Both the position numbers and the translations under genes were made by a program. A stretch of DNA of 61,993 nucleotides, the filler included, from Sluysia triapertura (taxonomy: Eukaryota): assembly GCA_046118255.1 (NCBI GenBank). It is 5 parts of 5 records of this genome, joined end to end, with 100 filler letters (N's around TTAATTAATTAA, not from the genome) between each part and the next. Parts side by side here need not be neighbours in the genome. Positions count along the whole stretch, not along the records: positions 13,422 to 25,768 come from JBJNIA010117751.1; 4 more parts are not named here. One strand, 5' to 3'. The notes beneath the pieces are model-generated. The model did no database searches and was not told the origin of the DNA. It saw only the letters and a list, made by a program, of their open reading frames with translations. Shown here piece after piece: positions 2,584 through 43,382 of the stretch; within the stretch, counting starts at the first letter, position 1; the number at the start of each line of letters is the position of its first letter.

Positions 2584-2789
2584 GTGATTAATGCAAGTAA
2601 AAAATTTAGTCAATTTTATTATTCAAATATATTAAAACAATATTTTTCTAATATATTGCAATAAACATACAAATAATGAATTTTATTTAGATTTATTTCT
2701 TACAATTTATAACCAAATCTCTCAATTTAATCAAGATTACTTTTGATAAACGAAATTTCTTATTTAGACAATCTGCTCAAATTGCATTT

Positions 2790-3330
2790 TATCAATGCTT
2801 TAGTCAGAAAATTATTTCCTGTAAGATTTCACATGACATCTTATCTTAAAAAATTACATTGCTTACCAATAAAATCAAGGGAGGAAATCAAAATTCTTAG
2901 TTATTCAAAATATTTTATAAGTTCTGAATATCTCTTGGAAATAGTAAAAATTCCAGTAACCAAATTAATTATGGCTTTAAGATACAAGAATTTTTGCAGT
3001 GATATATTACGTAGTTTGTTTCAAAAATACAATCACCTACCAAGGAATGTTAACACTTAAAACTTTACATCCATTACCGACTATTTTACGGAATCTAAAG
3101 ACATGCATTTTTATACATAAGATGAAATAACTCCTAAACAGCACATCGTTGAAATCAAATCTTCACACGATTTTAATAAATAGATAAACTTTTTTAGACA
3201 TTTGGCTTCTATAAATTTTTCTATAAAGTCCATGTTAATGCGGGCTGGCGCTTTAAGTGTTAAATTACTGGAAGATTATCAAATATTTTTAGAAAAAGGC
3301 AAAGTTTATAATGAATTATATTTTAAGCGT
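2790..3330 (+). mobile_element. L2-clade LINE ORF2 C-terminal remnant ending in a short-repeat tail
   Basis: RFHMTSYLKKLHCLPIKSREEIKIL matches the L2 motif HITP.L..LHWLPV..RI.FKI. It is followed by SEYLLEIV, KYNHLPRNV and VKLLEDYQIF, then (att)/(gattat)/(gtt) repeats at 3342-3390. Confidence 0.6.
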
Positions 3331-6300
3331 TTTCGAGTATATATTATTATTATATATGATTATGATTATGATTATTGTTGTTGTTGTTGATGAGGTTTCA
3401 AAAAAGTTTCACAATTCTGTTAATTTTGTTTTGAATGTAATATTTGACCTACATCATTTTCCATCAGAAAACTTTTCATATCTTAAACACGATTCATACT
3501 TTTGATGTTTAGTAGGGCTAATTTTTAAAAACTAAACAAATTACACTAAATTGTGGCAAGGCTTATTTTCAAAATAGATAATATTATCATTAATGAATGC
3601 AATTGCAGTAACACATAGAGAATTACACAGGATATATGTAAAAACGAAATACTTTTTCAACTTTTTTAGTTAAATGTTTCGGTTTTCTTCTTTTCACCCA
3701 ATTTTTATATTATTCATAAATTATTTAACTTCTTTTCGTTTTTCCTTTGATTGTTATATTCTTAGAGAAATAACTCTGTATAATTAACTCTGTATAAAAA
3801 AATTACCCTCACACAATAAAATAACCTTATTTGGTTTATTTCGGAAGTCAATAATGTATCCTCAACAAAATCTAGCATATCAAGATAATTAATTTTTGCT
3901 TGGATTTTAGTTTTTAATTAAAGATTTTTATTGATAAAATGAATAATGTATTATATATTGTATGTAATTATTTACATAAATGTAGCTTAATAAATAACTT
4001 AAATTATAGCTTAGAAATTAAATTCAAATTATTCAATATAAGATAGACATGTATTCACAAAATAAATATTTTCCTATTCTATTTGAAAAATGTATTTGTA
4101 GGGCTTTCTTGTTAAACGTGAAACTTTACAAAACGTTATGTAGATATTTGTAAAATTGCTTATGGTTAGTAAAATAATAAGGTTTAAATAATAAAATCTT
4201 GATTAGTGTATGTAAAATAAAACAAACATACTTCTAATCCATAATTTTAAAATATCGTTTTCGAATTTTACAGATTTAAAACCGAGCATAAATAAAGCAA
4301 GTATTATTGAAATTATTAAAATTATTTTCCAATAATAAGTACTGGCAACGCGAGCGTAAGAAGAATACTGATTTCTTATCCAATCATTTATTTTTAACGA
4401 AAACTTAAATGACGAACAGCCCTAAAAGTAACATAAGTACAAGGTAATAGAAATAAATACTTGAAATTGATATGAACTCATTAGATTTAAGGTTCATTTA
4501 GCGTATAAAAATAAACATTAAATTTTCGTGTATAAAAAGTATTTGTTATTTATACCAAAATAGAATCAGATTTATATTTAAAATAACACAAAGTATTAAG
4601 TTTTAAACACAAGTTTTCATTACAACTGCATTTTAAGTCACAACCAATTAAATTTATTTAAACTTTATAATTTTATATAATTTGATTTGGATGGTCAATG
4701 TAATTGATGCGACTAAACAAATCATAAAAGGACAGCCAAAGAATCATTATAAATCTCTAAAAAATGTGATGGAATGCTTTTCTTGAGGTCACTTTTCAAA
4801 AAATGAGGTTAGTTGATTTAAACTGTCAATAGGTAATTTATGTTATTCGGTACATTAACCGTAGTAATGCGTTATTGAAGATGCTTGTGTTTCTTGCAGT
4901 TATTATTAGCTGCACATGTGTATTATAGATAAAAGTAGAAACAAATGTAAGGACATAACCATTTATTTATATCTACATCATAGTGACTACTTGGAGGTCT
5001 TGCTCGTTTTGTCTACAGCCACTTATAAATAGACCACCTGTATAAAAATATTTTAAATAAAATGTGCCAATAATAATGAATGTGAAAAATATGATTTTAT
5101 AAATTGAAGGAAAAAATTAAAATTTTACTTTGTAGCTTAATAAAATTGGTTCTGTATATTAATTAATTTAAATTCAATGCTTAGAAAATCAAAATAACAT
5201 TTAAGCTCACTTAAAAGAGTTTTATAATTATCACAATAAATATCAATAATCGAGAAGAAAAGTTAAATATTCCAAATGAATATTAAATTATAAGTCGAAT
5301 AACAATTAACTTTATAAAGCATAAATATGATAATAATCACACACTAGAAATTCAACAAAGGACAATCTGCCAAATCTATAAATTAAATTAAATCAGTATA
5401 ATCCATTTCCTCTAACAATATAACTCGAATCTGGCGCACAGTCGAAATATAATTATTCATTCACGATCCCAGTAATTTTTCTGTGAAATTTAGAAGTCAA
5501 ATCAGCTTGCTTATGTAATAACTTTTAATCACATCGATTCATTTAATCTATATTTATCAAATAACCCACAATGGAGCACATGATGAGTTTCTTCTGCTGT
5601 ATGAAACCGATATTAATTAGTCAAACCAACTTAGATTTAATCTACAAAGTTTGATTTGGTAATGTTGCTATATTATAAACTGGTTTAATACCTTGAAAAT
5701 GAACCGAATGACTTTCTTTAGGCTTAAGGCCTTTACTTTTTTTGCCGAAATTCAATTTGGGCTTAAGGCTCTTGATTATCGACTGAACGAGAGTACCTTA
5801 AACCATTAATTAACAATTTATATTGAGTTTTAATATCACTACAATATTATTTAATATTACTACAGACTCAAAGCCTTTTAAACATGAGAAAAATAACGCG
5901 CATTACTAAGCTCTGAAATGAATTTAACAAGTAATTAAAAATAAAATTTAAAATTTACATATTACGTGGTCTTATTTAAAAATAACTTCAATCACAAATA
6001 GAATAATGCAAAGCTGTGAGTCCATCTACTTAAGGGCTAGTCCGTATGATATAAAATAATTTACGGAGGTCTAATTTAAAATGTGAAGATTAAATTCAAC
6101 TGTAAAATTATTTCTTGTATAAAACTTATATTTCTCACTTATATATCTTATATATCTTTAACTTAACACTAGATAACTGAATTTAGTAATGCATTTATTT
6201 CATGCAATAATGCTAGGTATTTTGAGCAAGATTAAAAATAATATAATTTTATATATGATTCCAATTAAGCAGAATCTAAAAAATAAATGGAATTTACTAT

Positions 6301-11929: not shown

Positions 11930-12650
11930 ATAACCTAACATTACAATCATTACACATATCTACTCGCCTTTTTTCATTTTTACTTCCACTGCATACAATA
12001 CAAACATTTTTGAGAGTTTTTGGTAAGGCCAGATACAGGAATAAATGATGGAAAATGTCAATAATTTGATGGCCAACCTTTTTAACTTAAAAAATTCAAA
12101 ATAATCATTTCATTCATAATATCTCATTTACTAACATTTCATATTTTGTATCCTATTTTTTAGATCCATCATAACCATTTTTATTTTAAACACTTTAAAT
12201 TCACAACTTTACATCAAAATCAAACTTACATTCAAACTATTAAACTGCATTTCAAATCTCATTTAAAGCATTCTTAACTCACAATCCCACAACATTTGAA
12301 TCACAATTTACATCTTAAATTATCATAGAAAACGTTAAAATCAATCCAAAATATTCCAAGTTTACATTTCTTTAACAACTTTGAAAAACATTAAATTCAC
12401 ACTTTAAAACCATTTTAAGCTTTCCAATCAAAAATGAACTTTGTCTCTGATATTTTATTTATATATAAAGAAAAAAATATAGATTATTTAAAGAAAGAAA
12501 CAGAAATATATGTAAAGTTTATGCATTACATTTTTGTTTTTATTATTTTATTATTATTATTGTCATTATTATTTTATTTTAGTTATCTTATTATAATTAT
12601 TATTATCAACTCTTTATTTCATTATCATTATTTTTATCAATTTTAGTTAT
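11930..12650 (+). repeat. C-rich strand-skewed 'WWPT' repeat, copy A, with (ATT)-rich tail
   Basis: tgatggccaaccttttt at ~12067 and downstream sequence align with 32537-32850 (I*WPTFL..NISFTNISYF vs LW*PTFL..NITFLNISHF). Strong G depletion on this strand. Confidence 0.7.
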
Positions 12651-12792
12651 ACTATATGTTATTGTAACTATTTAACTATATTCAAAACAGATTTGCCTGT
12701 CACCATTTTAATTATTATTTAACTATTTTTGTAAACTTTATGGTCATAGGCACATAAATCCACATGCATTCATTAATATGCTTTTTAGTTAA

Positions 12793-12862
12793 TTGATTGG
12801 ATGTCCAATCAAATCTGTTTTTATACTATACTTATTGATACTACTGCTGGACATCCAATCAC
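12793..12862. promoter_or_regulatory. CCAAT-containing palindrome downstream of repeat copy A
   Basis: TTGATTGGA-tg-TCCAATCAA at 12793-12812 and a second tggacatccaatca at ~12848-12861. Confidence 0.35.
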
Positions 12863-13321
12863 AGCACATTCCAATTAATATTGATATCGTAATAGACATA
12901 ATATAAAATTTTTCAATACTCAGTAATTGGTTTAATGTTATTTTTAATAAATTAACTTATCCGTCTATTTTAAGACAAATATTTAACCAGTCTAGTAAAA
13001 TATCACAATATTTAGTTGCTAAATCAAAAATAAATCTAATACAAATTGTGATTTCACATTATTTTAGTTAATTATTAATTCATCCATGTTGCTCATTAAA
13101 TCAAAAGAATTCAATAAATTAGTCAAAGTGAATATAAGTATTTCATGTAATCTTTTAGTGTCTGTACGCAATGAAACAAAACCTATAGATTTTCAATTTA
13201 CTGATTATTATCAAATACCTAAAATATTATGTTCTGCTTCAAACAATTGTGATTTTTCAACTCAAATTAGACCAAATACAAACGATTCATCCTTTAGTTT
13301 TTTAGGTTCGTTTACAATGTC

Positions 13322-14290: not shown

Positions 14291-15811
14291 AAGTTTTATT
14301 AATGCTGTTGTTATCTTACTTTTTTATTGTTTCCATTTTTTAATTGTTTTTGAACCAGGATAATTAAAATATACTATTCAGATTTAGCATATACAATTAG
14401 AATTTTAATAGAATAAAAAGAGCAAATAAAAATAAAAGAAGCAAATAGTAAATCTATTCAGAATGTAACAAACAATACATTATTTCAATTAAATAAGATC
14501 AAAAATAAACGTTGATTATTTAGATGTGTTCAGATTACAAATGATGTGATTAAAAATTCAATAAAAGGTAAGAAATTAAATGAAGTACATGAACCCAATA
14601 CAAATATAATTTGGCAATTATATCAAGTTTGATAAATATTCTAAATAATGAATTATCAAACAAAATATCGGAAGCTTAACCAAATAAGAAGCACCAGATA
14701 AAAAGGAAATATTTGGAATTCGTTGTCATAATTTTTTGCTTATAAAATAAAAATTTCTAACCAATAAGGATTAATATGAAAAAAATCAATATTTTTATTA
14801 ATCCATAAATGTAAGTAAATGCTTCAATAAAGTATAGTTCTTCTTATGAATAACACTACTTCAATGCGAAATGGTGATTATATATCAAATGAAAAGTTGT
14901 TTTGTAAAATGTTGAAAATACTTGGGTTTTAGTAGCACTAATAAATTATAAAATCATATTTACTCTTATAACCGACTCAGATAAAATCTTTACTAAGCTG
15001 AAAAAAATAAAATTTTAAGATAAATCTATGTTTGTCAATCAAAATCCGATAAGTGAAAAATTATTATCTACTTCAAAATCAGATCCTGATATATATTATA
15101 AACATAATGAAATTGAGATTAAAACCTCATGTGAAAGAAATTGTAATTTGCAAAAATATTTTTTGATGTGTTGATCCATTAAGACTTTATTGTGCAATTA
15201 CTTTATTCAAGTGGATATTCATACGAGTTCAATGTAGCTATATTGTAACCATTATTTCTATTACTGAATGTGGTATAAGACTAATATGAGCTGAGGACGT
15301 AATAAGATCTTGACCTAACTATGAAGTTAATGTAAGTAACATCAAACTTTTCATTCAAACCATTCTAGTTAATACATAAATCTTGTTTTTAAATTATAAA
15401 CCTACAATAAGTTTCAATAAATGATTCTAACATCTTTCATCTCACTTACAACCTAAACCGTTACATCTGTCAAAACTAAATTTATGATAACCTTAAAGAT
15501 TTCATTATCATACTGTGAAGCAACAATAACCCATCTTGCATTACACACTGTGTTACTCTTGTTCCTTCACAGTACAACAATCGTTTTATCTCCTTTTATC
15601 TCATGTATATGAGAAGGTAAGAATTGAAAGAACAAGATCGTGTTAATAGCTGCAAGGATTTATGCGTTTTAATTTCCGTAATAATAATAATGACAACAAT
15701 TTCACCATTTTTATTGTTATTGTCAATATTGTCATTATTATTATTATTATTATTATCATCATTACTGATATTAATTAAAGCCATTTTGAATAGATTAATA
15801 AGACAGTTGCT

Positions 15812-15963
15812 ACCGTCATCAGTATTTTTCATATAACTAAAAAATTGTCATTTTTATCACATTACTGATGACGGTCAGTTGCACATATTAAATTTAGTTA
15901 ATTTGTTTACTGTCCAATCAGAGAGTAGTTCTGAATATCATTAAAAATACTCTGATTGGACAG
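15812..15963. promoter_or_regulatory. Two perfect inverted repeats upstream of the 397-aa ORF
   Basis: ACCGTCATCAGTA (15812-15824) / TACTGATGACGGT (15863-15875), and CTGTCCAATCAGAG (15910-15923) / CTCTGATTGGACAG (15950-15963). Confidence 0.6.
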
Positions 15964-16055
15964 ACAAAAAGTGTAGCCAAAGATTTTTATAACGAAAATT
16001 GATTTACAGTTGAAAGAAATATAAAAGAATTTTGATTTGTCTTTGTTGAAGTGTC

Positions 16056-17249
16056 ATGATGGATGAGGACTTTAGCATACGATGCATAACCACCGATGCG
16101 ACATCAATACTGCTATCAACAAATGTCTTAGCTACAGTTTTATATCATTTTGATCAATATATGATAATAATCGATATGGAAGAAAAAGACAGAGAAATAT
16201 CTTGGTTACTGCGAGCTATTCATATTATCAACGTTGCCAGTGATTTTGTGATTACATCAAGAATCAAGAATTTTAAAGTACATGGTTTGGATTTAACAAA
16301 GAAGTTACCTGAAGAGTTAAATAGTCTGATTTCACTTTTAAGCAAAGTTATCAACAACAGCAAAAGAAATGATATGCACTCACCCATCTTCTTACCAATT
16401 CTCAAGATAAATATGACCTTCCATAACCTGTTTATTCTAAAGCATCAATCCCTAAAGTCATCTATATCAAGAAAGTGGGCCCACATCCCAAATCCATTCT
16501 TTTCTGATAACAGCAATTATATATGCAATCATGAAGGACATGGTTCCAGTCCAGTAAATTGTGGTCAACATGTAATTGTTACATCTAGAATTAGTTTGAT
16601 GAATCCACTGATTAGATTTTTGCTACACCAATATGAACCAGTATGTTTAAGAATTGAATCCTTTTTAATATGTGCAAGAAGAACTGGAAGCATGAAATGC
16701 CGGCGAGTACATAGAGAATATAATCTAATACAAAAATCCATTAGTGTTCAAATATATAAAAATAAATTGTATATTTTAATTCTTATTTTTGCAAAGATAA
16801 AATTAACAAAAGGAGTCATAAAATTCAGATTTGGATCATATATTAAAGTTTTTACTATAGTCTGGAGTATTAAACATATGATAAATAATAAATTTATTAT
16901 TAATTTAAAAATACACTATGATCGACGTTATTTTAAGTATCTATGTCATATGCATGACAAAACTAAGAACTTTTACACAAGTAGTATCCATAGATCAATT
17001 GAAAGATATTACAATCGAATATCAAATTTTAAGTTGAATAATAACTTAATAAATTCATTGCATTTGATTTTATTCATAAAATTATTAATTAACACAATTC
17101 CTTGTTACAAAACTATTATGATGCCCTCAAACTCTACTTACCTGTTAAACACCAATTTTAAATCAAAAGACTTAATTTCAGAACATCTTTTAAAATACTA
17201 TTATAATTCAGTTTGTATAATAACAACCCCCACACAAAGTTTTACTTAA
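16056..17249 (+). CDS. Uncharacterised 397-aa single-exon ORF, probable member of the YSPIF / Cys-His motif family
   Basis: By far the longest ORF in the window, ATG to TAA, unlikely by chance at this AT content. Motifs MHSPIF, RIES, CARRTGSMKCRRVH and NRISNF recur in the same order in the decayed ORF at 33.5-34.6 kb. Confidence 0.6.
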   Translation: MMDEDFSIRCITTDATSILLSTNVLATVLYHFDQYMIIIDMEEKDREISWLLRAIHIINVASDFVITSRIKNFKVHGLDLTKKLPEELNSLISLLSKVINNSKRNDMHSPIFLPILKINMTFHNLFILKHQSLKSSISRKWAHIPNPFFSDNSNYICNHEGHGSSPVNCGQHVIVTSRISLMNPLIRFLLHQYEPVCLRIESFLICARRTGSMKCRRVHREYNLIQKSISVQIYKNKLYILILIFAKIKLTKGVIKFRFGSYIKVFTIVWSIKHMINNKFIINLKIHYDRRYFKYLCHMHDKTKNFYTSSIHRSIERYYNRISNFKLNNNLINSLHLILFIKLLINTIPCYKTIMMPSNSTYLLNTNFKSKDLISEHLLKYYYNSVCIITTPTQSFT

Positions 17250-17299: not shown

Positions 17300-18165
17300 T
17301 ATTACTAGCCCCAGGATTTCCATATTCATTTCTTTCGATGCTGCCATCTATGCGTTGGCCCTTTAGTGAGTAAGCCCAGTGTCATAGAGAACTAACATAA
17401 GAGATATTAACAAATATAAAAACTAAGTAGCAAAAATATCCACATAATATAACAGGTGCCCGGAGTTAAGACCAGCAGCATAAGGATACATTAAAATAAA
17501 AATAATAGAGAAGTGAGAATTTTATAAAATATAACTCAGTTTTGAATAAGTTCTTATACGTTTTAAAGTCTATAAGTGACTATTTTATAAGTTTTGCATA
17601 AACAAGTTTATAAATGAATATTTTACACTAGTTTAAATAAGTTAAGAATAAATTTTACACGAATCGATTATATAAGCTATAAGTTTACAAGTGTTACAAT
17701 AACTCCTTTGAATAAGTTTTAATTTTACACGAATAAGTTTTTATTATTGAATAAGTTTTACAAGTTTTGACTACGAATTTATACGAATTGATTTTATAAG
17801 TGATTACTGAACCAATACGAGTAAATTACATTACCAAATCCTAAACTGATAAGTATTGTAACATTTAAATAAAATTGATAAACAAATTGTACTATTTGAC
17901 GATTATAGAACTGAATTAAGAAACTACATGGCTTTGCCAAATGATTTTAGAGATTGTATTTCACAATTAACAAGAGAAACGCGTCCTTTAATGGCCTTAT
18001 CAGAAATGTGCAAATTTAGTGGAGCAAAGGAAGAACTCTGCGATTTCTTATATCAATATGATAGTATCGCTGAAGCTAACTGGTGGAACGAAGTAGAAAA
18101 AGTTAAAAGAATACAAAATTATCTTACTGGTGTGGCAATCCAGATTTATAAAGAGATAAATGAAC
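17300..18165 (+). mobile_element. gag: Ty3/Gypsy LTR retrotransposon 5' remnant (possible LTR end and PBS, leader, gag N-terminus)
   Basis: ORF from 17928: KFSGAKEELCDFLYQYDSIAEANWWNEVEKVKRIQNYLTGVAIQIY matches the retrotransposon gag capsid pattern F.G......FL..FE......W....K......L.G.A..WY. ...aca|ggtgcc at ~17453 is PBS-like. The leader has repeated gaataagtttt. Truncated by C-rich sequence at ~18165. Confidence 0.7.
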
Positions 18166-18468
18166 ATGTGTGGTGTTACACCCCACTGTATCACATACAT
18201 TTCATCCATTATAACCATCAATCACATAAACCTCATCACAAACAAAAATCATATCAAAATAAAACACATTTACAATATCTGCAGTAACACACTTCTATCT
18301 CCGTCAAATCACAGACGCGTAATAAAATCTTTTTTAGTAATACTTTCTTATACTTAACGCTTGTTGCCATTTCGTCATCACTAAAGCACTACCTTTTTAT
18401 TGTATCTTTTATTGTACTTTTTATTGCATTTATTATTGTAAATTCTAAAACTTTGAATGCGTTTTTGA

Positions 18469-18802
18469 GAAGTCAATGTACAATTTCTATTTTATGTACT
18501 GGATCAAGAAAAAGACAAGGATCAACTGAATGATGATCGAAATCATATTTATTATTCATTTATTACTCATATTTATTATGGTTATCCATCATTTCGGTGG
18601 ACAAAGGTTTTCGCTGAATCAGAAATTCCTTTGTCGGCTGCAACATCAACTAATGATAAAGAGATTTGCAAGCAAATGGCTAATATCGAAAGAGATACCA
18701 AAGAAAACACAGAACGAATGATCGAGGAGATGAATGCAGATTCTGAATTGATGGAAAATTTTATGGATCCTGAAGAGAGAATTAAGAGATTTCGAACGTA
18801 AT
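18469..18802 (+). pseudogene. Isolated exon-like open frame (~110 codons), product unknown
   Basis: Stop-free frame not in the ORF track: VLDQEKDKDQLNDDRNHIYYSF...GYPSFRWTKVFAESEIPL...MIEEMNADSELMENFMDPEERIKRFR, ending at a donor-like gtaatt. Higher GC than its flanks. Confidence 0.4.
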
Positions 18803-19267: not shown

Positions 19268-19687
19268 ATCCAGAGATGCCGAATTAAAAAATATACAATA
19301 ACGCAAAGAGTTATTTATGAAATATAAACCAACTATTCATCTAGCTGCTAAAGTTGGTGGTCTGTACAATAACGAAGAATAATTTTGATCTTTCTAGAGA
19401 TAATACGAAAATTAATGACAATGTTTTATACTGTGTTTGTAAATATAATCTTTCCAAAGTAATATCATGTCTTTCTACATGCTTATTTCCTGATAAAACA
19501 ACATGTGCTATAGACAAAACTACGGTATATAACGATCCTCGACAAGATTCCAATTGCGGATATTCCTATGTAAAAGGAATGATAACCATTTTGAATAAAG
19601 TATGTCATAGTCAATGTTGTCGCATATTTACATCGGTTATTCCAACGAAGGTGCACGTCCCGTATTACAATTTTAATAGTGATGATG
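19268..19687 (+). pseudogene. GFUS: GDP-L-fucose synthase (GFUS/TSTA3/FX) pseudogene exon
   Basis: SRDAEL...YKPT-IHLAAKVGGLYNN [frameshift] ...NDNVL...KVISCLSTCLFPDKTT...GYSYVK...FTSVIPT...NFNSDDG. In-frame TAA at 19299-19301 plus one frameshift. Acceptor tttgtag and donor gtaata are retained. Confidence 0.88.
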
Positions 19688-19949
19688 GTAATATAATTTA
19701 TTTATTGTTATTTACATTTTTCTTGTTTTTTTATTGCTTAAATTTTCGTTAAGTGTTAACAAATTTCGTTAATGTGTTAAATTTTGTTTTAATGTTGGAT
19801 TTGCTAATTTTCACAGGCATTACGCCTATTTTGTTAAATATAATAAAAATATGTTTAAATCGCTTTTTAATTATAGTTTGTCTAATTCCAATCTTTTATA
19901 ATAAAAGTTTAAAAACAAATAAAAATAATGATAAATTGTATAAATTAAA

Positions 19950-21959: not shown

Positions 21960-22460
21960 ATTTTTGCTTCAATGTAGTGAGTAAATTTGTAATTCTTTCT
22001 GAATGAATTTAAAATACATTATCGTCATCTGTGGTAAAACCTGTAAAACCATGGAAATATATACAATGTTTTCCATACGTGAGGCACTCGCCATCATTTG
22101 ACCAGATTTATAAGGTAGCTTAATCAGTGTTTTTGTATTACTTGTATTATAATGATAATGATTATTATAATCGAACATGTAGGTAGGTGCACCTTTCACT
22201 AATTTCAAGTTCTTATTTAAAAGGTTTTCACCATTTAAACTAGGTTTCACTTCAAGAATTTTATTGTTCGTAATTAAATTAGGAAAAATAGGTGAGTATA
22301 AACAATCAATACGAAAAGTACTCGGATAAAAATTACAATTTTCAATTTATTTAACATCATAATTATCAATCAATTGACTTGATCATTTGTTTTGTTTTTG
22401 AACATGGAATCGGATAACAGATTTCTTTATTCAAGTTAAAGGATCAATGAATTGTTGCAT
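21960..22460 (-). pseudogene. Decayed member (copy C) of the YSPIF / DGxCxxYGxxCxYxH ORF family
   Basis: LYSPIFPNLI at ~22284-22301; after a frameshift, NDGECLTYGKHCIYFHGFTGFTTDDDNVF*IHSERITNLLTTLK (motif at 22051-22095), which aligns with 34384-34520. Confidence 0.65.
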
Positions 22461-22744
22461 CAATACTTTATTAGGTTAGTTATACATTTTAAAATTTTAA
22501 TATTGAACTTCATTTAATTAACTTTAATATTCTAAAAGGTAAGTTTTAAAATTTAAGCACAAAATCTTTTTTTTAATAATGATTTTTACAAGAATTACTG
22601 TGACATCCAAAACAATTGTGTTGTCAAAAATAATTGGTGAACGATTTTTATTGAACTATCTTAACTATGTTTTAAATTAAAATGATTGCAATTAATTGAC
22701 CAATAAGGATAATAGTTAGACGAAAACTGTCATTAGTTGACAAT

Positions 22745-22785
22745 AATGGTAATAATAATAATGATAATGAAATTGTAATAATGAA

Positions 22786-22823
<38 letters not shown>

Positions 22824-23500
22824 AAAATAAAATTAATAGTAATAAAATAAAATAAAATGGAGTTATAAAAATAAAGACATAAAAATACACAAAATTCTTT
22901 ATTTCTTTGAATATTATTTATCTTTTCTTTAAAATATAAACAATGAAATAAAGTAAAATTACATAAAATCTTTTAAAACTTAATTCTTATGATTCTTGAA
23001 TGTACTTTTGTTTTATAAAAAATCTGTAAATGTGAAGAGTGTTCGTGTCTTTTCACAATTAGTGCTTCTTTGTTACTTACATCTTGTTGAATAAGTACGT
23101 TTCTTGTGTTTCTGATACTATGTATGTTTCAATTACTTTACAAGTCTTTTAGGTATTGCCTAATGCTAAATTAATTAAGCTTGAATTTGTTGAATTTAGA
23201 ATTTGTGTTATAAAATACATGCTGTGTTTAATAAAAGGATATAAAAAGAAATTAATGAAATTGGAGATGTTAAAGAGATTTCATTTACATCAGCATTATA
23301 TTTCGTTTAAAATTCAATTTTAATGATGTTTTTAATGATTTTAAATGGAATGAGTGCGTTAAGGGATATAAGAATTTGATTTTTGGTGTATTGAGATGAA
23401 TTTAAAATTTTAGTGACTTAGTTGGCCACCATAAAATGACACATTAAAATCTAAATATGGTTTAACATTAATCCATTATACGCCAATGTCCATTTCTTGG
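22745..23500 (-). repeat. C-rich 'WWPT' repeat, copy C, with (ATT)n tail
   Basis: Reverse complement reads VILWWPT at ~23420-23440, continues C-rich, ends aaagaaaagata...aaagaaataaagaattttgtg, then (att)n at ~22745-22880. Confidence 0.65.
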
Positions 23501-24170: not shown

Positions 24171-25768
24171 TGAACGTTTCGAATTCTATTATAAAATAAT
24201 CGATGTCAGTAGTTTCACAAAGAGGTTCATATTCTAAGTAATACCAAAAGATATAGTCACTACGTACTGAAAATAATTTAAATTCTGTTTAAAATATTAA
24301 TTATATTGCACTTACCTTACAACATCTGAGAATATGCGACGAAAATATATCACTAAAACAATATTATATATTTAACTAGCATGTAAGTAGAAATTGGCAG
24401 AGTATAAGATATAGAATTAAATTGGTTAGAAAATGAAATATTAATGAAGAAAAGGATCTTATGTGATGAAAATTAAAGAATTACTGGCTATAAAACCTGA
24501 ACGGAGAAACATAATATAAAAACATAAAAAATTTCTGCAACAAACATTAATATTTCAAATTTGCTAGTTGATACATATTCTAGCATTAACAATTATATCT
24601 ATTTTTTGTTTGGTACGTATTTTCAATTGTGACAATTTTTAAATTAGTACTTACTTTTACTAACAATTACATTGAATATAATTTCAACGTAAATGTAGTA
24701 TATTGAATAAATAATTTTAATAATAAAAGACAAAGTTTAACGCGAGAAATTGAAAAAATTAAATTTAAAGATCCAATTTGATGTCGATCACACGAAGTGA
24801 AAGGAATAACTAACTCATAATAAGTCGTCGGCCTGACAATTATCAAAACTATTCAATATCTTATTACTAAAAAATTTTGCTAGCAGTTTGTTAACCAGGA
24901 AACCATTGAACACTGAGTGTTAAGTCCCGCATTATAATAAATTCATCAAGCAAATATGAAATGCTAACTAACAACTTTTAAAAAACGTATTCATAATTTT
25001 TATTTATATAGGTGTTTCCATTCGTTAATCTAAAGTTTAAATTCGTACCCAAATTATTTTCATTTGTCACAGATACATTAAACTAGGATCAAAATATTAT
25101 GAATACCAACTGACTTGCTCCTTATTTGTGTATTAACTGATGGACAACTGTGTATTTGACGTTTATTTATTTATTTGTGTATATAGTTACAAATAATGTA
25201 TAAAGTTGTAAAATAATCTCTATAAATTATATTTATAATGTTGTATAATATTTTAATTGTATTTAAATAATTTTAAATAACTTTAATAATTGGATTTTAA
25301 ATTTTAGTTTCTTTTTGATTATACATTATTTAAATACTTTGTTTAGTAAAATTATTTTGTTTCTTTAAAAGGATGTCAAGGTTAAGCTAAAATTAATATA
25401 AATATAATCACAATTCATACAAAAACAAAATAATAAAAATCTTAACAAAAATTTTAATAATCTTTGGAAGGAGATTTGTTAATATCATCAAGGTAACAAT
25501 TTTTTGAAAGAAAATTTTGTGAATCACATACATAATTTTGCCGTTAGTTATTTTCAATTAACTTAAAATATATTTTACGTACATAGTAATTTTTGACGTA
25601 AAATCTTTATAACTCATTGTGGAACCACTTAAAGAGGTTCAACGTAAATTCTAAAATTAAAATACATTTTGATAAGATTAACGACACTGTTAATCAAGCA
25701 AGCATTTATTATCTTAACCTTGATTCTTAATTTGTGTGAACATTTTATTCCTGATTTTAATTGTGTTT

Positions 25769-26228: not shown

Positions 26229-26263
<35 letters not shown>

Positions 26264-26900
26264 AAAATGCATAAAGTCTTAGATTCTTAGTTTAACATGG
26301 TCTTACTTTAAATCCTTTTAGATTCTTAACATATTATGAACCTTACAGAATTATAAATTTGCGATGTTACGGCTGAAAGATGTAAGGTAACGCGTAAGGC
26401 GTTTTAATATAAATGTTACCTGCTGTTTTCTAGTTTTACGTAAATTTTAGATACTTTAGCCTAATGTTCTAAATGAAGTAATTTTTCTAGATGAAAATGT
26501 GAATAGATCGTGAGTTACTAATATACTATAAGGGTGTAGTTTTGTGTGTAAAAGTAGATAAGTTATAGTCTAACTTTTGATGTGTTCAAAAGGTGATTAT
26601 ACGATGTTGATGTTTTTAAGTAATCTTGTCCTTTTGTGCTGTTAGGGATTTAAATTGGCTTTAGCAGATGAATTGTTTTCGTTGATGTAGAGGAGATAAA
26701 TATGAGAATGTTAAAATATTAGAGAGTATGGATTTATGATTTAGTTTAATATTGTTTTATGTTGATTTTTGGATGTAAATTGTAGATTTTGAGTGTGTAT
26801 GTGTTTTGTTGAATTATGCAGAGAAGATTTTTATAAAATTTGATAATAGTGAAAGGTTAGCAAAAACTTCTGTAAAAAGAATGTTTTTGATGAATTTTTT
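26045..26900 (-). repeat. C-rich strand-skewed repeat, copy F, with (ATT)-rich tracts
   Basis: G-rich plus strand. Reverse complement aaaatctacaatttacatccaaaaatcaac matches ~12199-12226 aattcacaactttacatcaaaatcaaac. Similar aaagaagataaaag...aaagaaaaagggaatttatgtg end motif. Confidence 0.5.
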
Positions 26901-27839: not shown

Positions 27840-27962
27840 TTAAGTGATCTCATTTGTACGTTTCCTAGACTAATTAATAATTTTAAAGAATTATTTAGTA
27901 CGATTATATAAAATCAATAAAATAAAATTTAATTAGTTGTTGATACAATGTATTTTTTCTAA

Positions 27963-28226
27963 ATGGTACTTTTTCTTTATTGTAATTTTATTTACTATAA
28001 ATGTAGCAAGAAATTATTTGCATACATTTGGGACAATCAGGTGTTCAAATTTCCAATGCTGCTTGGGAGATATTTTGCATAGAACATGGAATAGAAGCTA
28101 ATGGAACATTAAAAGAAAGTCTTCGTGACACAGACAGCCAAGCTTTCACAACCTTCTTCTCAGAATCCCCTACTGGCCAGTATGTACCACGATGTTTAAC
28201 TTTAGACTTAGAACCAACAGTTGTAG
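27963..28226 (+). CDS. TUBA: Divergent alpha-tubulin, exon 1 (ATG 27963-27965) and exon 2 (28007-28226)
   Basis: ATG|gt, then a 41-nt intron, then ag|QEIICIHLGQSGVQISNAAWEIFCIEHGI...TFFSESPTGQYVPRCLTLDLEPTVV|gtaagc. Both intron positions match the common animal alpha-tubulin structure. Downstream exons were not found in this contig. Confidence 0.92.
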
Positions 28227-30779
28227 GTAAGCAATAATTAAAAAATACTTTGTAAAATTAAATAATCGCCAATATAATATTCAGTATAAATATGTAAAAA
28301 AACTGTTTATTTATGTTTGAATATTTATAAATGTTCATGCCAAGGTGTCATAAAAAGGCCGGATGACCTTAAATCTGTGGCTACTTAAATAATTTGAAAG
28401 TACAATTTCGGTTTTACAAACTTGTTTTTTTATTAAATAGTTTTGTTTAATTTATGTATAAAATCTAATTAATGTTTTCTGAAATAAGTATTTGATTCCA
28501 AAATTGAATATATTCCCTTTTATTGTTAGCCAGTAATTAAACCGTTTCCAATTAAATTAGATAATTCAATCTTCAATTCGATAATTCGCACCTATCTTCA
28601 CTTGGATTTACGTTTTTTAACTTGTGGTGATAATTACTTGCGTCACTCATACTAAAATTTTTCTCTTATTATTTGGTTTTGCAAAGTAATATGACCAATT
28701 GTACATTGCAGTATTTCCTCATCTCAGTTTCTATAATCATAAACGTTTTACATTTTCTATAATGAATTTTCGAAAATTTTATCAATAATTTTGTTAGGAC
28801 ATTATTATCATTTCATAATAATAATAAAACAATAGTAATTTAATAATTCATAATATAATAATACTAATTTCAATAATAATGAAAACATAATAATATTAAT
28901 TTAAGTCTAGTCACATTAATAATTATAAATATCAAGTGGAATGACATATGGTATCACACTTAAACGCTTTTATATCCACAATTTATCTCTAAACACAGTT
29001 AATTTTTGCATCAGTTTATCAAATACAATTTTATGTTGGTTAATTTATTGAACTGGCAAAGCTAAAAACAAATTTAATAATTATTGTTGGCAAATTCATT
29101 AACAGTCTTGACAAGAGTTCCAATAGATAACGAATTTCATTATAAAACAAATTTTATTATTTGCTTGACTCTGGTAAACACCTGAAGTGCTGCTGCTGCA
29201 CTATATCGCCTTTTTATTTCAATGTGGTTCTTTAAAGAAAACCTCATATCACGATTCTATTAATAATTTAAGGTTTCGACTCTTATCCGAGTCTTACACA
29301 ATTAAGGGTTCCTCAACATGATTTTTAAATAAAGTTATGATGCTACTAAGAAGCTTATATATATGAAACTACTGCTTCGCTATTAAGAATCACTATTGTA
29401 ATTGAATCTTAATACTCAATTTGCGTTTAATAAATCTCGTTAATTCCCTATCTTCGTATTATTAAGGATAATTATTGTAGATTTTATAATCCTATTTAAA
29501 GGATTTAAAAAGTGATTTTATCACCGCATTTAAACCAGTGTGAAAATTGGAATCAAAATTGTTTAAAATGCTTTTTAAAAAACAAAATTAAACTAAAATT
29601 GAAAAACCACAACAATATGGTGAATTGAATGCGCTTTTGAATATGGATTTATTCGAGTACATAAATACTCTTCATTACACTTACTTTATGTACATGTGTA
29701 TTCCTTATTTGACAGAATTATATTGATGACTTTCAAAAGAGTGGATAATCACTATTTTAGTAATTAATTCAGGCTACAAAGCCTAATTAAAATCATTATT
29801 GCGTCATTTGTATTATATTTTTTGCATTATATATTATATATTTTTGTATTATATACTATTATATATTATATATTATATAGTATTATATTATTTTTATATT
29901 ATTAAAATTATTATAAGAGAACGTTATTATATTATTTGTTATTATTATTACTACAAAAACGTTAGTGTATTAAATTAAGCTGACATGTAAGTTTATATAT
30001 GCAAATTTAGCCTCCTTGTGAGGTTAAAATTCATTACTTTTCCAAGGCAATTTAATACAAAATCCATTTTAAAATTCTCAATTGATATTAAGATGAAAAG
30101 AAATCTTAATATTTGACTGTTATTATTTGAGTCTTGTAATTTGATCTTACTGCTGATCATTTATTAAATTAAAGAAGTTGTCTATAAATAAATTTTTCTT
30201 AGTATTTATTTAATTTTAATTATTTACAAATTAATTTGATCGAAGTATTACTTGTTTGTGTTTAGGTTGCATTATATTTCATTAAAATAGCTATTCGCTG
30301 ATTAGGTTCAAAGAACCCCGTGACATTTAATGTGGTCAGAGACACTCTAACAATTGCAAAATTTAACGAAGTCATTATGTAAAATCCTGTAGGGTTGTCC
30401 ACCAGTAACGTCATAAAGCACCAACTATAGGCGAACCGGTTTAAATATATTTTTCGCAGTACTACTTCGGAATAAAGTACTCGTACTTATATTTTTGGCT
30501 ATTTTTGTGAGTTAATTGTTTCAAACCCATTCTATCAAGGGCGTTAGATAGTAAGTGTCGGTGAAATTGCTTACCTATTATGTATCTGAGTTTTGAAACG
30601 ATTTGAATGAATTGTAAAAAATTAAAGTTTATATGAAATACATGTGTGCTTTGATAACAATAAATAAATTTCAAAGATAAATCAATAAGTAATTAATGTT
30701 TTTTATAACAACTTTAATAAAAAATTAATAACGAAAATTAATAATAATAATATATTAATTAATATTATACTCATATCTT

Positions 30780-32529: not shown

Positions 32530-33130
32530 TAGTCACTGTGGTGACCAACCTTTTTATTCAAACTTTAAATCATTTTATACATATTTAATATCACTTTTCT
32601 TAACATTTCACATTTTACATTTCACTTTTTCAGATTTATTAAAATTCTTTTATATTTTAAAACATTTTAAACTCATAATTATATAACATTAAAATTTTAT
32701 TTAATATCTAAAATCAGCGAATGTATATTTCAAATTTTATTTAAAACCTTTTAACATTCAACCATGGACATCATTGGAAAACACTAAACTCACATTTCAA
32801 AATCAATTTTAAACATTACAATCAAAATGAAATTTCTTTTAACATCTTTAACTACGTTATTACTTTCATTTTAGTCTTTACCGCGTAAATTCTTTTTCAA
32901 AAACAATACGAACTAAAATATATTCTTAAAGAATCTACGTTTAAAGAAAATTACAATAAGATCGTATTTCAAGAAATTTATGTTTAAAGAATTTTATATA
33001 AAGCTATAGAAGCAAGCAAAGAATTATTTAAGCGTTTTAATTTCATTTTTTATTTTATTAATTATTTTATGTTAATTTTATATTTATTATTAATTTTACT
33101 TTATTATTATTAAAATTATTATTATACCGA

Positions 33131-33167
<37 letters not shown>

Positions 33168-33170
33168 GCC
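32530..33170 (+). repeat. C-rich 'WWPT' repeat, copy D, with (ATT)n tail
   Basis: gtggtgaccaaccttttt at ~32538 aligns with 12067-12440. ATT-rich tail at 33040-33167. Confidence 0.7.
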
Positions 33171-33252
33171 AATATTATATAAAACCAAAATTTTAATTAG
33201 TTTAGTTGTTGCTAACTCAGTCAACAGCGCTGCTTCTATTCATTTCATTTCC

Positions 33253-33439
33253 AACTGTCACCACCTGACAGTTCATGGTTAGAGTTGTAATTGTCGCCAA
33301 GCTAAAAATAAAAACATTGAACTAATAAAATCTACGCTTGTATTCCAGCATTCAACCGACTAAACAGCACTTTTTTTCTAGTACAAAATAAGTATTATTG
33401 ATCAGCGAATCACATTGCTGTCAGCATTCAATGTGATTC
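33253..33439. promoter_or_regulatory. Two inverted repeats upstream of decayed ORF copy D
   Basis: AACTGTCA-ccacc-TGACAGTT at 33253-33273, and GAATCACATTG (33407-33417) / CAATGTGATTC (33429-33439). Confidence 0.5.
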
Positions 33440-33499: not shown

Positions 33500-34581
33500 T
33501 TAATAAGATTAAAAACAGATAGTTAATCAAAAAGTTTGAACGTGTTAATAATTTAAATACTGTTGAAAATAAGTCTTCCAGATAAAAAGTTATTTAGACG
33601 TAATTGTAAAAGATTGGTATTTCATTTAAAATTAACTCCATCATTAGAGTTTACTGAAATTAAACAATCAATAGTTGATAAAACAAAAGATGGTTTCGAT
33701 GATTAATTTGAAAATTGTATCTTATCTGTGTGTCGACATAAAACTCAAATAATCGATTCAGATTATTTTTTAGTAGAAAATAAAGTTAGTTCTACATATC
33801 CGATTGAACTGTTGTCGCAAAGCAATTATGATTGCGACAAATGTTTGAAGCAAGATCATAATATCGGTGTTATACATTCTTTAGAAAACATAAATTTTGA
33901 TTATAATACTAAGAAAGTATATTCTTAAGGCATCTGAAAAACCAACAATAACTACGGTCATCACTAATACATTGAATTATACACTCCAATGTTTTAAATT
34001 ATCTTGCCAAATTTTCACATACCAGCCATCGTCACAAACACAAAACAATTCAAAATGCTATTAGTATGAAACAATATCTTTTAATTCATCTAATGTGTAT
34101 CAATACATATCAGTAATTAATTCAAATCCTTCCAGTGTATACTTAATGTCAAGTAATATTCCTTTAATCTACTTGACAGATATGAATTTTGATCCAACAT
34201 TCTCACATGTTGTAACAGATGATGTAAGAACTAATTTGGTGATTAATGCAATTGAGCATGATCAATACGTATTTAACTCACACAAGCTATATCGTTCCTA
34301 TTTACCAATTAGAATAGAATCTCTTAAAAAGATCATTCAGAATGACCATTAGAGAAGTGGCATGTCTATATGACATGTCGTTAGATGGAAGATGTTCAAA
34401 GTACGGTGCTAGTTGCAAATATTCGCACGTCTATGAATTAAGACACGATGCAAACGACGAGGACTCTTTCTACAGCAATTCTAATCGAATCTCAACTTTT
34501 ATATCCAGTTTACAACTTAATCCAAGAACTATTCTTGTCAACAATTTATTAAGTTTAAAAGTAAATAATAATGTTTTATAA
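33500..34581 (+). pseudogene. Decayed member (copy D) of the YSPIF / CCCH-like ORF family
   Basis: Frameshifted ORF pieces 33728-33928, 34095-34352 and 34342-34581. LYTPMF at ~33977; YRSYLPIRIES; CLYDMSLDGRCSKYGASCKYSH (C-x9-C-x6-C-x3-H, CCCH-like); DEDSFYSNSNRISTF. Confidence 0.65.
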
Positions 34582-37320: not shown

Positions 37321-38444
37321 TACTATATAAAGAGCTAATGTTTTGCAACAAAAGACACAGAAAGAGAAAACGATAACAGTAATAAGCGTCAAAATAGTCA
37401 AAAGCCAAAGATCAGAACTACTGAAACAACTTCATTCTGTAAGAATACCGGATTCAATTGAATTGTGGATAACACTCATTGAATCTTTTTTCAGTAATAA
37501 TACTAAAATAAAGACAAGTTTACGTGGTTAGTAGAGAGCTAGGATCTATTTTATTTTTATCATTACTTTATATTTTATTTGTGGTACCAAAATTTATGTT
37601 GTGTAACCCCTGTGATTTTTAAAAAAGTTGAACAATAATTTATCAAAAAATTTGATTTAAAGAATTAAAAGTTTGATCTATAGAAGAGGTTGATTTATAG
37701 AATTATATTTGTCATATAAAAGATTAGATTTTTGTAATTGTTATATGAGAATATGTCGAGATTCAGTTTTATTTGATTTTTAATTAATGACGAGGGATAT
37801 CAGTAAACAAAGCAATAAAAACAACATTACTGATAATTTTTACTTGATATAGTGAGTTCTGAAATTATTGAGATTCTATTTAAGGTGTCTAAATTGGTAT
37901 TGATTTGTCATAACTAATAATTTTCATAGGCGCAACAATTCAATAAAACTTAAAATAAAGTCAATATTCGCTCAATAAATAATTACAAATTACTAAAATA
38001 TAATACTTACGCTCAGAAATAAGGCAAATTCTATTAACCAAATAACAATAAATTAACAATCACAATAAAATAATCGAATAAAAAAATAAAATTTAGTCAC
38101 TTGCTGAAGAAACAAAATTTCCTAATGAAGTGTTTCTCACTACTGCGTTGAAACAGCCTTTTGACAGCAGAACTCCATAAATTATTGCAGTATTAGGTAG
38201 TTTTTATGTAGGATTTAGATAATTGTTGTATAATTTGACTTAATTAATGTGCTTATTCCGTAGAGTCGGTTTTATGTAGACCAATTTTAACATTCAAAAT
38301 ATTGCTGGATTTTTATGCGAAAAGATTTAATTTATCATAACAAAATGTCTAGAGTTAAGTGCGCCTTATAAGTACGATTTACACCTATTAAGATGACGTC
38401 CGTAGTTGTTTATAGTACCTTTACGACAATTGCTGTCAAACACG

Positions 38445-38870
38445 TTGTGGTAGCCAACCCAATATCCTAAAATTATATTTTAATAATATATAACAAAATC
38501 TCTCTTCAGAACATTCCACAATCTTTAATACTTTCAAGCACTCTAAACATAAAATTTCATAACGCCAAAATCATATTCACCATCGAAAACAATCAAACAT
38601 ATACTTAAAAATTAATTCAAAGCATTGCAAATTTAATTCAAGACATTGCACATAAAATTACGTTCCACTACATTTAATTATGTTTCCATCATAACCTTTT
38701 TCATATTTTATTTCCTTTACATCTACTAAAACTTCATCCTAACTTTCTCAAAACATTTCTATTTCATAACTTTATAATATTTAATTTAAGTTATTTTCTG
38801 ACAAGCATAAATTGTTTAATATTTTTATTTTATCAAAATAAATTCTTTTAAATTTCTTTTACTTCCGTGA
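38445..38870 (+). repeat. C-rich 'WWPT' repeat, copy G
   Basis: ttgtggtagccaaccc (LW*PT) followed by G-poor sequence similar to copies A and D. Confidence 0.55.
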
Positions 38871-43141: not shown

Positions 43142-43382
43142 TTATTGGGATACAGGCCTAAAGTGCTATACAGTTTAATTAACTATAATTATCTAAAAAT
43201 TGTTAGACAGGGCTGTTAGCTCCGTGGGTAAAGCATCGAACTGCGCAGCGAGAGGTCCTGGTTCAATCTCCGGTGAGTTCATTTTATGAAGTCTAACACA
43301 TCACCCATCTAACAATTGTGTTTTATTAGTCAATTATACTATCATTATTCTAAATGGCACTTCGGGCCTTTACCTCAACATT
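43142..43382. mobile_element. ~240-bp element with long imperfect inverted arms enclosing the tRNA-like core
   Basis: Left arm tattgggatacaggcctaaagtgc...ataatt...aattgttaga versus reverse complement of the right arm tgttgaggtaaaggcccgaagtgc...ataatt...aattgttaga. Confidence 0.5.
43210..43281 (+). ncRNA. tRNA-derived sequence (pseudo-tRNA or SINE head) with Pol III A and B boxes
   Basis: GGGCTGT-TAGCTCCGTGGGTAAAGCA (A box) ... GAGGTCCTGGTTCAATCTCC (B box) ... GAGTTCA; 72 nt. Anticodon and T stems pair poorly (nominal anticodon GCG), so it is not called a functional tRNA. Confidence 0.7.

Follow-up and report, generated by a model that had tools for sequence, protein, structure and literature searches.

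Among the closest described systems to the repeat unit considered here, which was analyzed in a 61,993-nucleotide (nt) stretch of the Sluysia triapertura genome (GenBank assembly GCA_046118255.1; hereafter the window), are the 5′ ends of Ty3/Gypsy and BEL/Pao retrotransposons. The window is AT-rich animal DNA with a GC content of 24% and is made up of five contigs split by four N44-TTAATTAATTAA-N44 spacers. The units, of which the focal copy lies at 15335-17249 (+), combine a G-depleted block, an ATT tract, hairpins and an open reading frame (ORF). They resemble Ty3/Gypsy and BEL/Pao ends in having a terminal non-coding module with a T-rich end and, in some copies, a TG start, a short inverted complement and a TATA-like word, followed by leader hairpins and a first ORF with a Cys/His finger, and in occurring as block-only copies. 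They differ in that no paired long terminal repeat (LTR), target-site duplication (TSD), convincing primer-binding site (PBS), CCHC knuckle or pol was found, and their finger is of the CCCH type. In PAT, Ngaro and DIRS elements, too, a terminal repeat precedes a gag-like ORF that may carry a zinc finger (PMC4157794), whereas the units gave no match to reverse transcriptase (RT)/RNase H, methyltransferase or recombinase, and split terminal repeats, whether direct or inverted, were not found in them. CR1/L2 long interspersed nuclear elements (LINEs; Jockey superfamily) share with the units a G-poor sense strand, an ATT-type tail, a variable 5′ extent and ORF1 zinc fingers, whereas the block is null against ORF2 profiles and the ORF1 types listed in PMC4120745 (Table 1 included) do not comprise CCCH. 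Penelope-like elements share microsatellite association and partial-tandem layouts (PMC8557442). Unlike them, the units contain no match to RT or GIY-YIG (Pfam) and no hammerhead ribozyme (Rfam, E ≤ 1; the core pattern is missing from the supported units). Some Penelope-like clades are without a hammerhead ribozyme. By-eye likenesses to Penelope endonuclease, Academ, Sola or RTE motifs were dropped.

The unit is real but smaller and looser than first described: it represents an old unclassified family of repeats in which a non-coding front module precedes ORFs of at least two kinds. Copies were named U1 (12067+), U2 (the focal copy, 15335+), U3 (23431-), U4 (32539+), U5 (47290-) and U6 (38448+). 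The original prediction of an old, high-copy, unclassified mobile family with coupled module order and strand holds for four to five copies, through a CCCH link between U3 and U4, a CCAAT-hairpin link between U1 and U2 and co-oriented ORF remnants; it does not hold for U5. The evidence does not yet amount to a new class of mobile element.

The G-depleted block is ∼450-520 nt long (5-9% G) and starts with a 12-nt motif resembling TGGTGGCCAACC. At ≤ 2 mismatches the motif occurs five times in the window against 0.21 expected (0/100 shuffles), the pattern having been drawn post hoc from these same copies. Sites were located in U1 (12067+), U3 (23431-), U4 (32539+) and U6 (38448+) and at 30404-; the last has no homologous block by pairwise scores or nhmmer profile, and the motif is not present in the focal unit or in U5. 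The U1 and U4 blocks are homologous with a score of 174 (null maximum 85) and 68% identity. For three further pairs, the score was beaten by 0/500 shuffles for U3/U1, 0/500 for U6/U4 and 1/500 for U3/U4. Leave-one-out nhmmer recovered U1 and U4 (E about 3-5e-5), with U3 and U6 marginal (E 0.14 and 0.16), and the four-copy profile gave no match to the U2 or U5 blocks. The focal block aligns with U1 12216-12478 (score 61.5, 0/500 shuffles) and gives no alignment above shuffles with the U4 block (p = 0.57), so that the focal copy joins the family solely via the U1 copy. Homology begins at the motif, and the 300-470 nt preceding it showed no relation in any of the 21 pairs compared; the motif therefore acts as a boundary. 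It begins with TGG and is preceded by the triplet TGT in two of four copies (U4 and U6) and TAT in one, with TGTCA lying 5-9 nt ahead of it in three of the four. TATATAAAG is found in two of five copies (U1, and U4 at 32995). After the tract, an inverse of the start resembling G[TC]CACCAC is found in two of six regions (12699 and 33257), against 0.06 expected per region, also post hoc. No transposon paper containing the motif, and no description of the unit layout, was found in the literature searched.

The block evolves as non-coding DNA. Mismatches in a 122-nt gapless U4/U6 segment fall 14/13/14 over the three codon positions, with no codon-position dependence, only 3 of the 15 gaps between U1 and U4 are multiples of three, and periodicity over 18 segments is not significant (p = 0.28). 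Stop depletion was seen in 2 of the 11 blocks tested, namely U6, with three stops in 156 codons of the frame 38372-38840 (+) (p = 0.004, one of 11 tests), and the focal ORF tail; there is none in the focal block. The block had been taken for a decayed ORF with WWPT in frame; that reading is interrupted by a stop in three of the four copies and, the block being non-coding in its evolution, is unsupported. The features of the focal unit and the other copies are as follows.

15335-15680 (+): U2 block, G-depleted and non-coding, terminal motif and initial ∼150 nt of the other copies missing; ends in AAGATCGT, TTTATGCGTTT
15683-15781 (+): U2 AAT/TGACA...TGTCA/ATT hairpin running into (ATT)n; arms at 15683 and 15729, tandem repeat called by Tandem Repeats Finder (TRF) at 15707-15764, fold z -5.3
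15812-15875 (no strand): U2 13-bp inverted repeat containing TGATGACG, fold z -4.8
15910-15963 (no strand): U2 inverted repeat with CCAATCA in both arms, common to U1, fold z -5.4
16056-17249 (+): focal orphan ORF, intact, 397 aa; ATG at 16056, TAA at 17247-17249
12067-12861 (+): U1 copy, apparently inside an intron of a BIRC6-like ubiquitin-conjugating (UBC) gene; motif 12067-12078, block to ∼12500
12530-12606 (+): U1 ATT-rich tract, within U1; CCAAT hairpin at 12794-12861
13068-13319 (+): U1 84-codon ORF remnant at the contig end; weakly, at a borderline level, like 46255-46070 (-) (p = 0.01) and 33360-33437 (+) (p = 0.06)
22742-23431 (-): U3 copy; motif 23431-23420, block to ∼22900, ATT tract 22856-22742
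21967-22346 (-): U3 broken ORF with frameshifts and stops; terminal CCCH finger 22101-22051, Pfam zf-CCCH_UNK E 0.0086
32537-33439 (+): U4 copy; TGT start, motif 32539-32550, block to ∼33045, TATATAAAG within the block, ATT tract 33050-33180
33257 (+): GTCACCAC, the inverse of U4's own start, within U4; hairpins at 33253-33273 and 33407-33439
33707-34581 (+): U4 broken ORF with one stop and frame changes; terminal C-x9-C-x6-C-x3-H finger and acidic/helical tail, Pfam zf-CCCH_UNK E 4.8e-4
38448-38800 (+): U6 copy, motif and block, without ATT tract or ORF; one frame stop-poor
26234-26317 (-): possible further relative, a G-depleted block end with pre-tract words and an AAT/TGACA hairpin as in the focal copy (p = 0.01); block not matched by the family profile

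An ATT tract follows the block in four of the five supported copies (tandem-repeat scan, TRF); U6 has none and the U5 tract is of opposite sense. Such ATT/AAT tracts are frequent, with 13 across the window. Coupling to a tract of the same sense was found for 4 of 16 G-depleted blocks against 0.78 expected (p = 0.002), where the four include one (46176+) that does not belong to a unit, and the degenerate U1 tract lies below threshold. All four perfect inverted pairs of ≥ 11 bp with short loops in the window lie inside units (12794, 15812, 15910 and 33407; 0-2 in each of five shuffles), and fold z scores of the three focal hairpins range from -4.8 to -5.4. Hairpins were confirmed for U1, U2 and U4; candidates in U3 (z -0.8) and after the U5 tract (z -0.3) fold no better than shuffles. 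The CCAATCA hairpin common to U1 and U2 gives three exact matches against 0.12 expected, and the U2 post-tract region with the TGTCCAATCA hairpin is similar to U1 12640-12950 (0/500 shuffles). The pre-tract words AAGATCGT and TTTATGCGTTT are common to U2 (15634, 15659) and U4 (32958, 33027). The focal module has 8.2 TGACA/TGTCA words per kb, against 1.8 per kb. We take TGATGACG to be a CRE/ATF-like word and CCAATCA to be CCAAT-box-like, and the TATA label is an assumption of the same kind.

Directly behind the perfect hairpin arms, the focal copy carries its intact 397-codon ORF, within a reading frame (16050-17246) of 399 stop-free codons; the longest in 2000 shuffles was 137. The ORF contains C-x8-C-x8-C-x3-H, with the second Cys encoded at 16671, and its last ∼170 codons are G-poor. 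No significant homolog was found by phmmer against 1.84 billion representatives, and no significant match in word-seeded protein searches, PDB sequences, GTDB contigs, plasmids, Pfam, PHROG or NCBIfam. An AlphaFold2 single-sequence model of residues 1-235 had a predicted local distance difference test (pLDDT) value of 31. Under the interpretation given below, the focal copy would be a divergent, probably younger subfamily member carrying an intact ORF of another kind.

All ORF remnants are on the same strand as the module. The CCCH regions of U3 (22101-21967) and U4 (34378-34515) align with a score of 60 (null maximum 48 of 200), which is the sole significant pair among the downstream ORFs. 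A Cys/His-motif ORF in all copies had been predicted; CCCH fingers in U3 and U4 and the intact focal ORF were recovered, and a single shared ORF was not. All PDB matches of the U4 ORF are CCCH proteins (best E 0.087), and its 228-residue protein (33894-34579, read through with X) has no homolog among proteins of 125-399 aa. The pattern C-x4-9-C-x3-H has 4 of its 11 window matches on unit sense strands, which make up 5.5% of the sequence (p = 0.002, post hoc).

U5, listed in the original prediction as a looser copy, was rejected as a family member: its block gives p 0.03-0.65 with no profile match, and its tract is AAT when read along the strand of the unit. Two weak links were found among many pairs, of its block with the focal ORF tail (p = 0.01) and of its ORF with 13020-13319 (p = 0.01). 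The region downstream of U5, 46291-44902 (-), contains several ORF fragments of 66-95 codons without database match.

The units are tentatively interpreted, with rather less than even confidence, as remnants of an old, high-copy retroelement family, probably LTR-like and diverged into subfamilies, of which they would represent the terminal promoter/leader and first ORF. The terminal non-coding module, with its TG start, G depletion, TATA-like word and T-rich/ATT tract, would work as an LTR or promoter, and a short inverted complement of its start would sit ∼630-730 nt downstream. Leader hairpins with CCAAT/CRE-like words would come next, followed by the first ORF, which in two copies would be a CCCH-finger RNA-binding protein acting as a gag/ORF1-like nucleic-acid chaperone. 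An RNA transcribed from the module would be bound by the CCCH protein, and RT and integrase would be supplied by parts not preserved in the window, or in trans; the block-only copy U6 would be a solo or truncated end. Hints of an LTR-like nature are the TGT start of U4 and U6, and TATATAAAG and the post-tract inverse of the start in U1 and U4. The position of the intact focal ORF immediately after the hairpins was counted in favor of this interpretation. Zinc fingers are usual in retroelement first ORFs (PMC4120745, PMC4157794). Homology among copies, non-coding evolution of the block, the boundary at the motif, the hairpins, the CCCH fingers and the co-orientation are observed, whereas promoter function, an RNA intermediate, the LTR nature and the role of the ORF are inferred.

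Several results weigh against such a retroelement front end. No second LTR was found in any of five upstream-vs-downstream direct-repeat tests, and self-blastn gave no block repeat downstream of a copy's own ORF, where the copies may be truncated. Around three units there were no shared flanking repeats of ≥ 11 nt and no TSD by eye, the unit ends being undefined. No PBS follows the inverted word, and the errantivirus tRNA 12-mers in the table of PMC13524379 match the motif over at most 8 nt. No gag, CCHC, protease, RT or integrase match was obtained for unit ORFs and X-read frames (Pfam, PHROG, NCBIfam); retroelement gag knuckles are normally CCHC. The link between the U3 and U4 ORFs rests on the finger, the tail beyond it being not significant by itself (p = 0.125). 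By alignment the focal ORF has no detectable relation to the CCCH ORFs (E ≥ 3 against the CCCH protein), and a DNA transposase is the best lead for it. The literature searched, which covered few subscription papers and Repbase reports, contained no CCCH finger in a transposon ORF, and this is weak evidence of novelty. No tRNA genes were called in the window. The statement that the units hold no RT, integrase, transposase, Rep/helicase or polB was upheld, none of these having matched in the scans.

A rather unlikely alternative is that the block and ATT tract form a non-autonomous non-LTR retroposon, either like a short interspersed nuclear element (SINE) or a long LINE 3′ untranslated region, with a fixed 5′ end, variable 5′ truncation and a microsatellite tail. 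The downstream hairpins and ORFs would then be target-site neighbors, with some preference for another repeat. The tail-adjacent words common to the focal, U4 and 26317 copies, the shorter 5′ side of the focal copy and the arrest of U1/U4 homology at the tract are in line with this, as are the ATT-type tracts at the ends of the L2-type family in the window and of the fetched LINEs L033, L036 and L056. However, the CCCH link and the CCAAT-hairpin link would need chance or targeting, and U6 is without a tail. Moreover, ARAGORN and Rfam find no tRNA-like A/B-box head, no B-box-like word is seen by eye in the G-depleted block, and block ends differ from the L2 ends of the window (best p = 0.03, 21 pairs).

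It is likewise unlikely, and marginally more so, that the motif is the terminal inverted repeat (TIR) of a DNA transposon, either P-like or presumably like a hAT/Charlie-type end, with the block as subterminal sequence and the ORFs as transposase or cargo. In that case the focal ORF would correspond to two thirds, on the C-terminal side, of a very divergent P/THAP9-type transposase that the module may interrupt. All ten named Atlas matches over two queries are P-transposase GTP-binding-domain clusters, with scores of 0.82 for the whole focal ORF and 0.78 for residues 190-397. These scores are below the tool's line of 0.9, however, and one third of shuffled proteins reach 0.8, so that the likeness is a weak lead. 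The terminal motif is sharp, and the density of TGACA/TGTCA words in the focal module also fits a DNA transposon. P-like stretches were seen by eye at ∼15160 (+), 24900-23740 (-) and 52000-51800 (-), of which 24415-24532 and 51845-51979 are 70% alike by blastn. Against this, the Pfam P-transposase models gave no match at E ≤ 10, these stretches included, PDB was negative, a chain of three published C-terminal-domain motifs did not exceed shuffles (p = 0.25 and 0.66) and the focal ORF is unlike the other P-like stretches. There is no inverted repeat at an opposite end, and the three bases before the motif vary among copies. P-element/THAP9-type transposases resemble the focal ORF in being its nearest Atlas clusters, in a mostly helical character and in motif order by eye, whereas the alignment-based tests were all negative and no THAP domain, catalytic triad or TIR was identified. 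The alignments of two THAP9 preprints (bioRxiv 2026.08.31.747927 and 2026.09.03.748810) bear on this lead.

An unrecognized class, in which a conserved terminal promoter module (G-depleted block, ATT tract and CCAAT/CRE hairpins) is joined to interchangeable orphan ORFs (among them the CCCH RNA-binding protein and the intact 397-aa protein) and mobilized in trans by another enzyme, is considered improbable. Slightly less credible still is a repeated promoter and gene cassette within a giant element, such as a Burro-like Gypsy, Maverick, terminon or endogenous virus. One leader with differing orphan ORFs would suit such an element, and giant elements carry accessory ORFs (PMC6431247). The upstream flanks are nevertheless unrelated, copies adjoin host-type genes (BIRC6-like, UFL1-like and epimerase; the UFL1-like gene lies ∼1.3 kb from U3), and neither the unit ORFs nor 85 window fragments matched polB, capsid, Rep-helicase, integrase or env. 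The original placement of the unit inside a giant element, as an accessory segment, is not supported, given the unrelated flanks and the proximity of U3 to the UFL1-like gene. The giant Gypsy element Burro of planarians resembles the units in its accessory orphan ORFs and AT-rich host, whereas no gag CCHC, MATH, BIR, ankyrin, env or pol was found in the units, which are short and abut host-type genes.

It is very improbable that the block derives from sequence that once coded for the C-terminus or linker of a CR1/L2 LINE ORF2, now decayed and followed by its tail, with the CCCH ORF as ORF1 of the next LINE; a CR1/L2 coding end is largely refuted, unless the block is very decayed. The LINE panel consisted of 79 loci (L001-L079) with CR1/L2-type ORF2 from GTDB assemblies, searched utilizing frameshift-tolerant profiles; other clades lie outside it. 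Pairwise comparison had low power, the in-window control also being null, and the profile test was the usable one. All three profiles were null for the U1, focal, U6, U5 and 26317 blocks, while both in-window LINE controls were detected. The 3′ end of a known LINE, which the original prediction gave as the explanation that would undo it, was for the most part not found for CR1/L2, the exception being 23574-23422 (-), upstream of and ending at the U3 motif, which matches a Crack-type profile (0/60 shuffles) and was unseen in other copies. U4 reached p = 0.02 with one profile, the four-copy sum was 68.8 vs a null maximum of 68.0 with one of three profiles, and the motif is present in the coding sequence of the fetched LINE L012. 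These positive registers disagree, however, with U3 scoring upstream of the motif and U4 elsewhere; anchored scores downstream of the motif and linker profiles were null, and no endonuclease was found after the CCCH ORFs (N-terminal profile, Pfam). Simulated detection was 20/20 at 20% decay and lost at 40%, so that only heavy decay or another clade would escape.

Returning to the retroelement interpretation, a true retroelement with a CCCH first ORF would represent a gag/ORF1 type absent from the literature searched. If the family is instead one of solo LTRs or SINE-like, it is a matter of routine repeat annotation. Should the 397-aa ORF be a remote P-type transposase or intact orphan cargo, it would become a candidate for a gene that is active or domesticated. 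The family occurs at ∼1 copy per 10-12 kb of window and could account for a large unannotated share of the genome.

LINE remnants were also annotated in the window. An L2/CR1-type RT remnant is located at 31417-30931 (-) (Pfam RVT_1 E 2.4e-4, profile iE 1.7e-13), and an L2 3′ end at 30910-30750 (-) is common to 3180-3340 (+) and 400-250 (-) (z 8-12). Region 2731-3260 (+) scores as an L2 C-terminus. Many bacterial and archaeal contigs of metagenome-assembled genomes in GTDB encode intact animal-type CR1/L2 ORF2, corresponding to host contamination in species-representative genomes.

Decayed repeats are dense across the window. Host-type genes comprise the BIRC6-like ubiquitin-conjugating gene (UQ_con E 6e-22) and epimerase, UFL1, tubulin and LicD pieces. 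Frameshifted-looking pieces, probably pseudogenes, are epimerase 19345-19749 (+), UFL1 20649-19994 (-), which contains a 120-bp internal tandem duplication, and tubulin 27960-28234 (+). Further interspersed repeat pairs of 80-88% identity were found at 2359-2583/6986-6761, 38977-39024/52319-52272 and 428-506/2999-2919. A tRNA-like A/B-box was seen by eye at 43205-43285 (+) and may be a SINE head; ARAGORN and Rfam make no call there. By eye, a Gag-like frame lies at 17928-18155 (+) and 18163-18500 (+), with no Pfam support. It is broken by a TGTGGTG-starting segment, G-depleted and then T-rich, that looks like a small version of the unit, with 4 mismatches to the 12-nt motif and p = 0.018 against U1. 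Finally, 38162-38438 (+) consists of 277 nt between 8-bp perfect inverted repeats, ends 9 nt ahead of the U6 motif and may be a short LTR or a miniature inverted-repeat transposable element.

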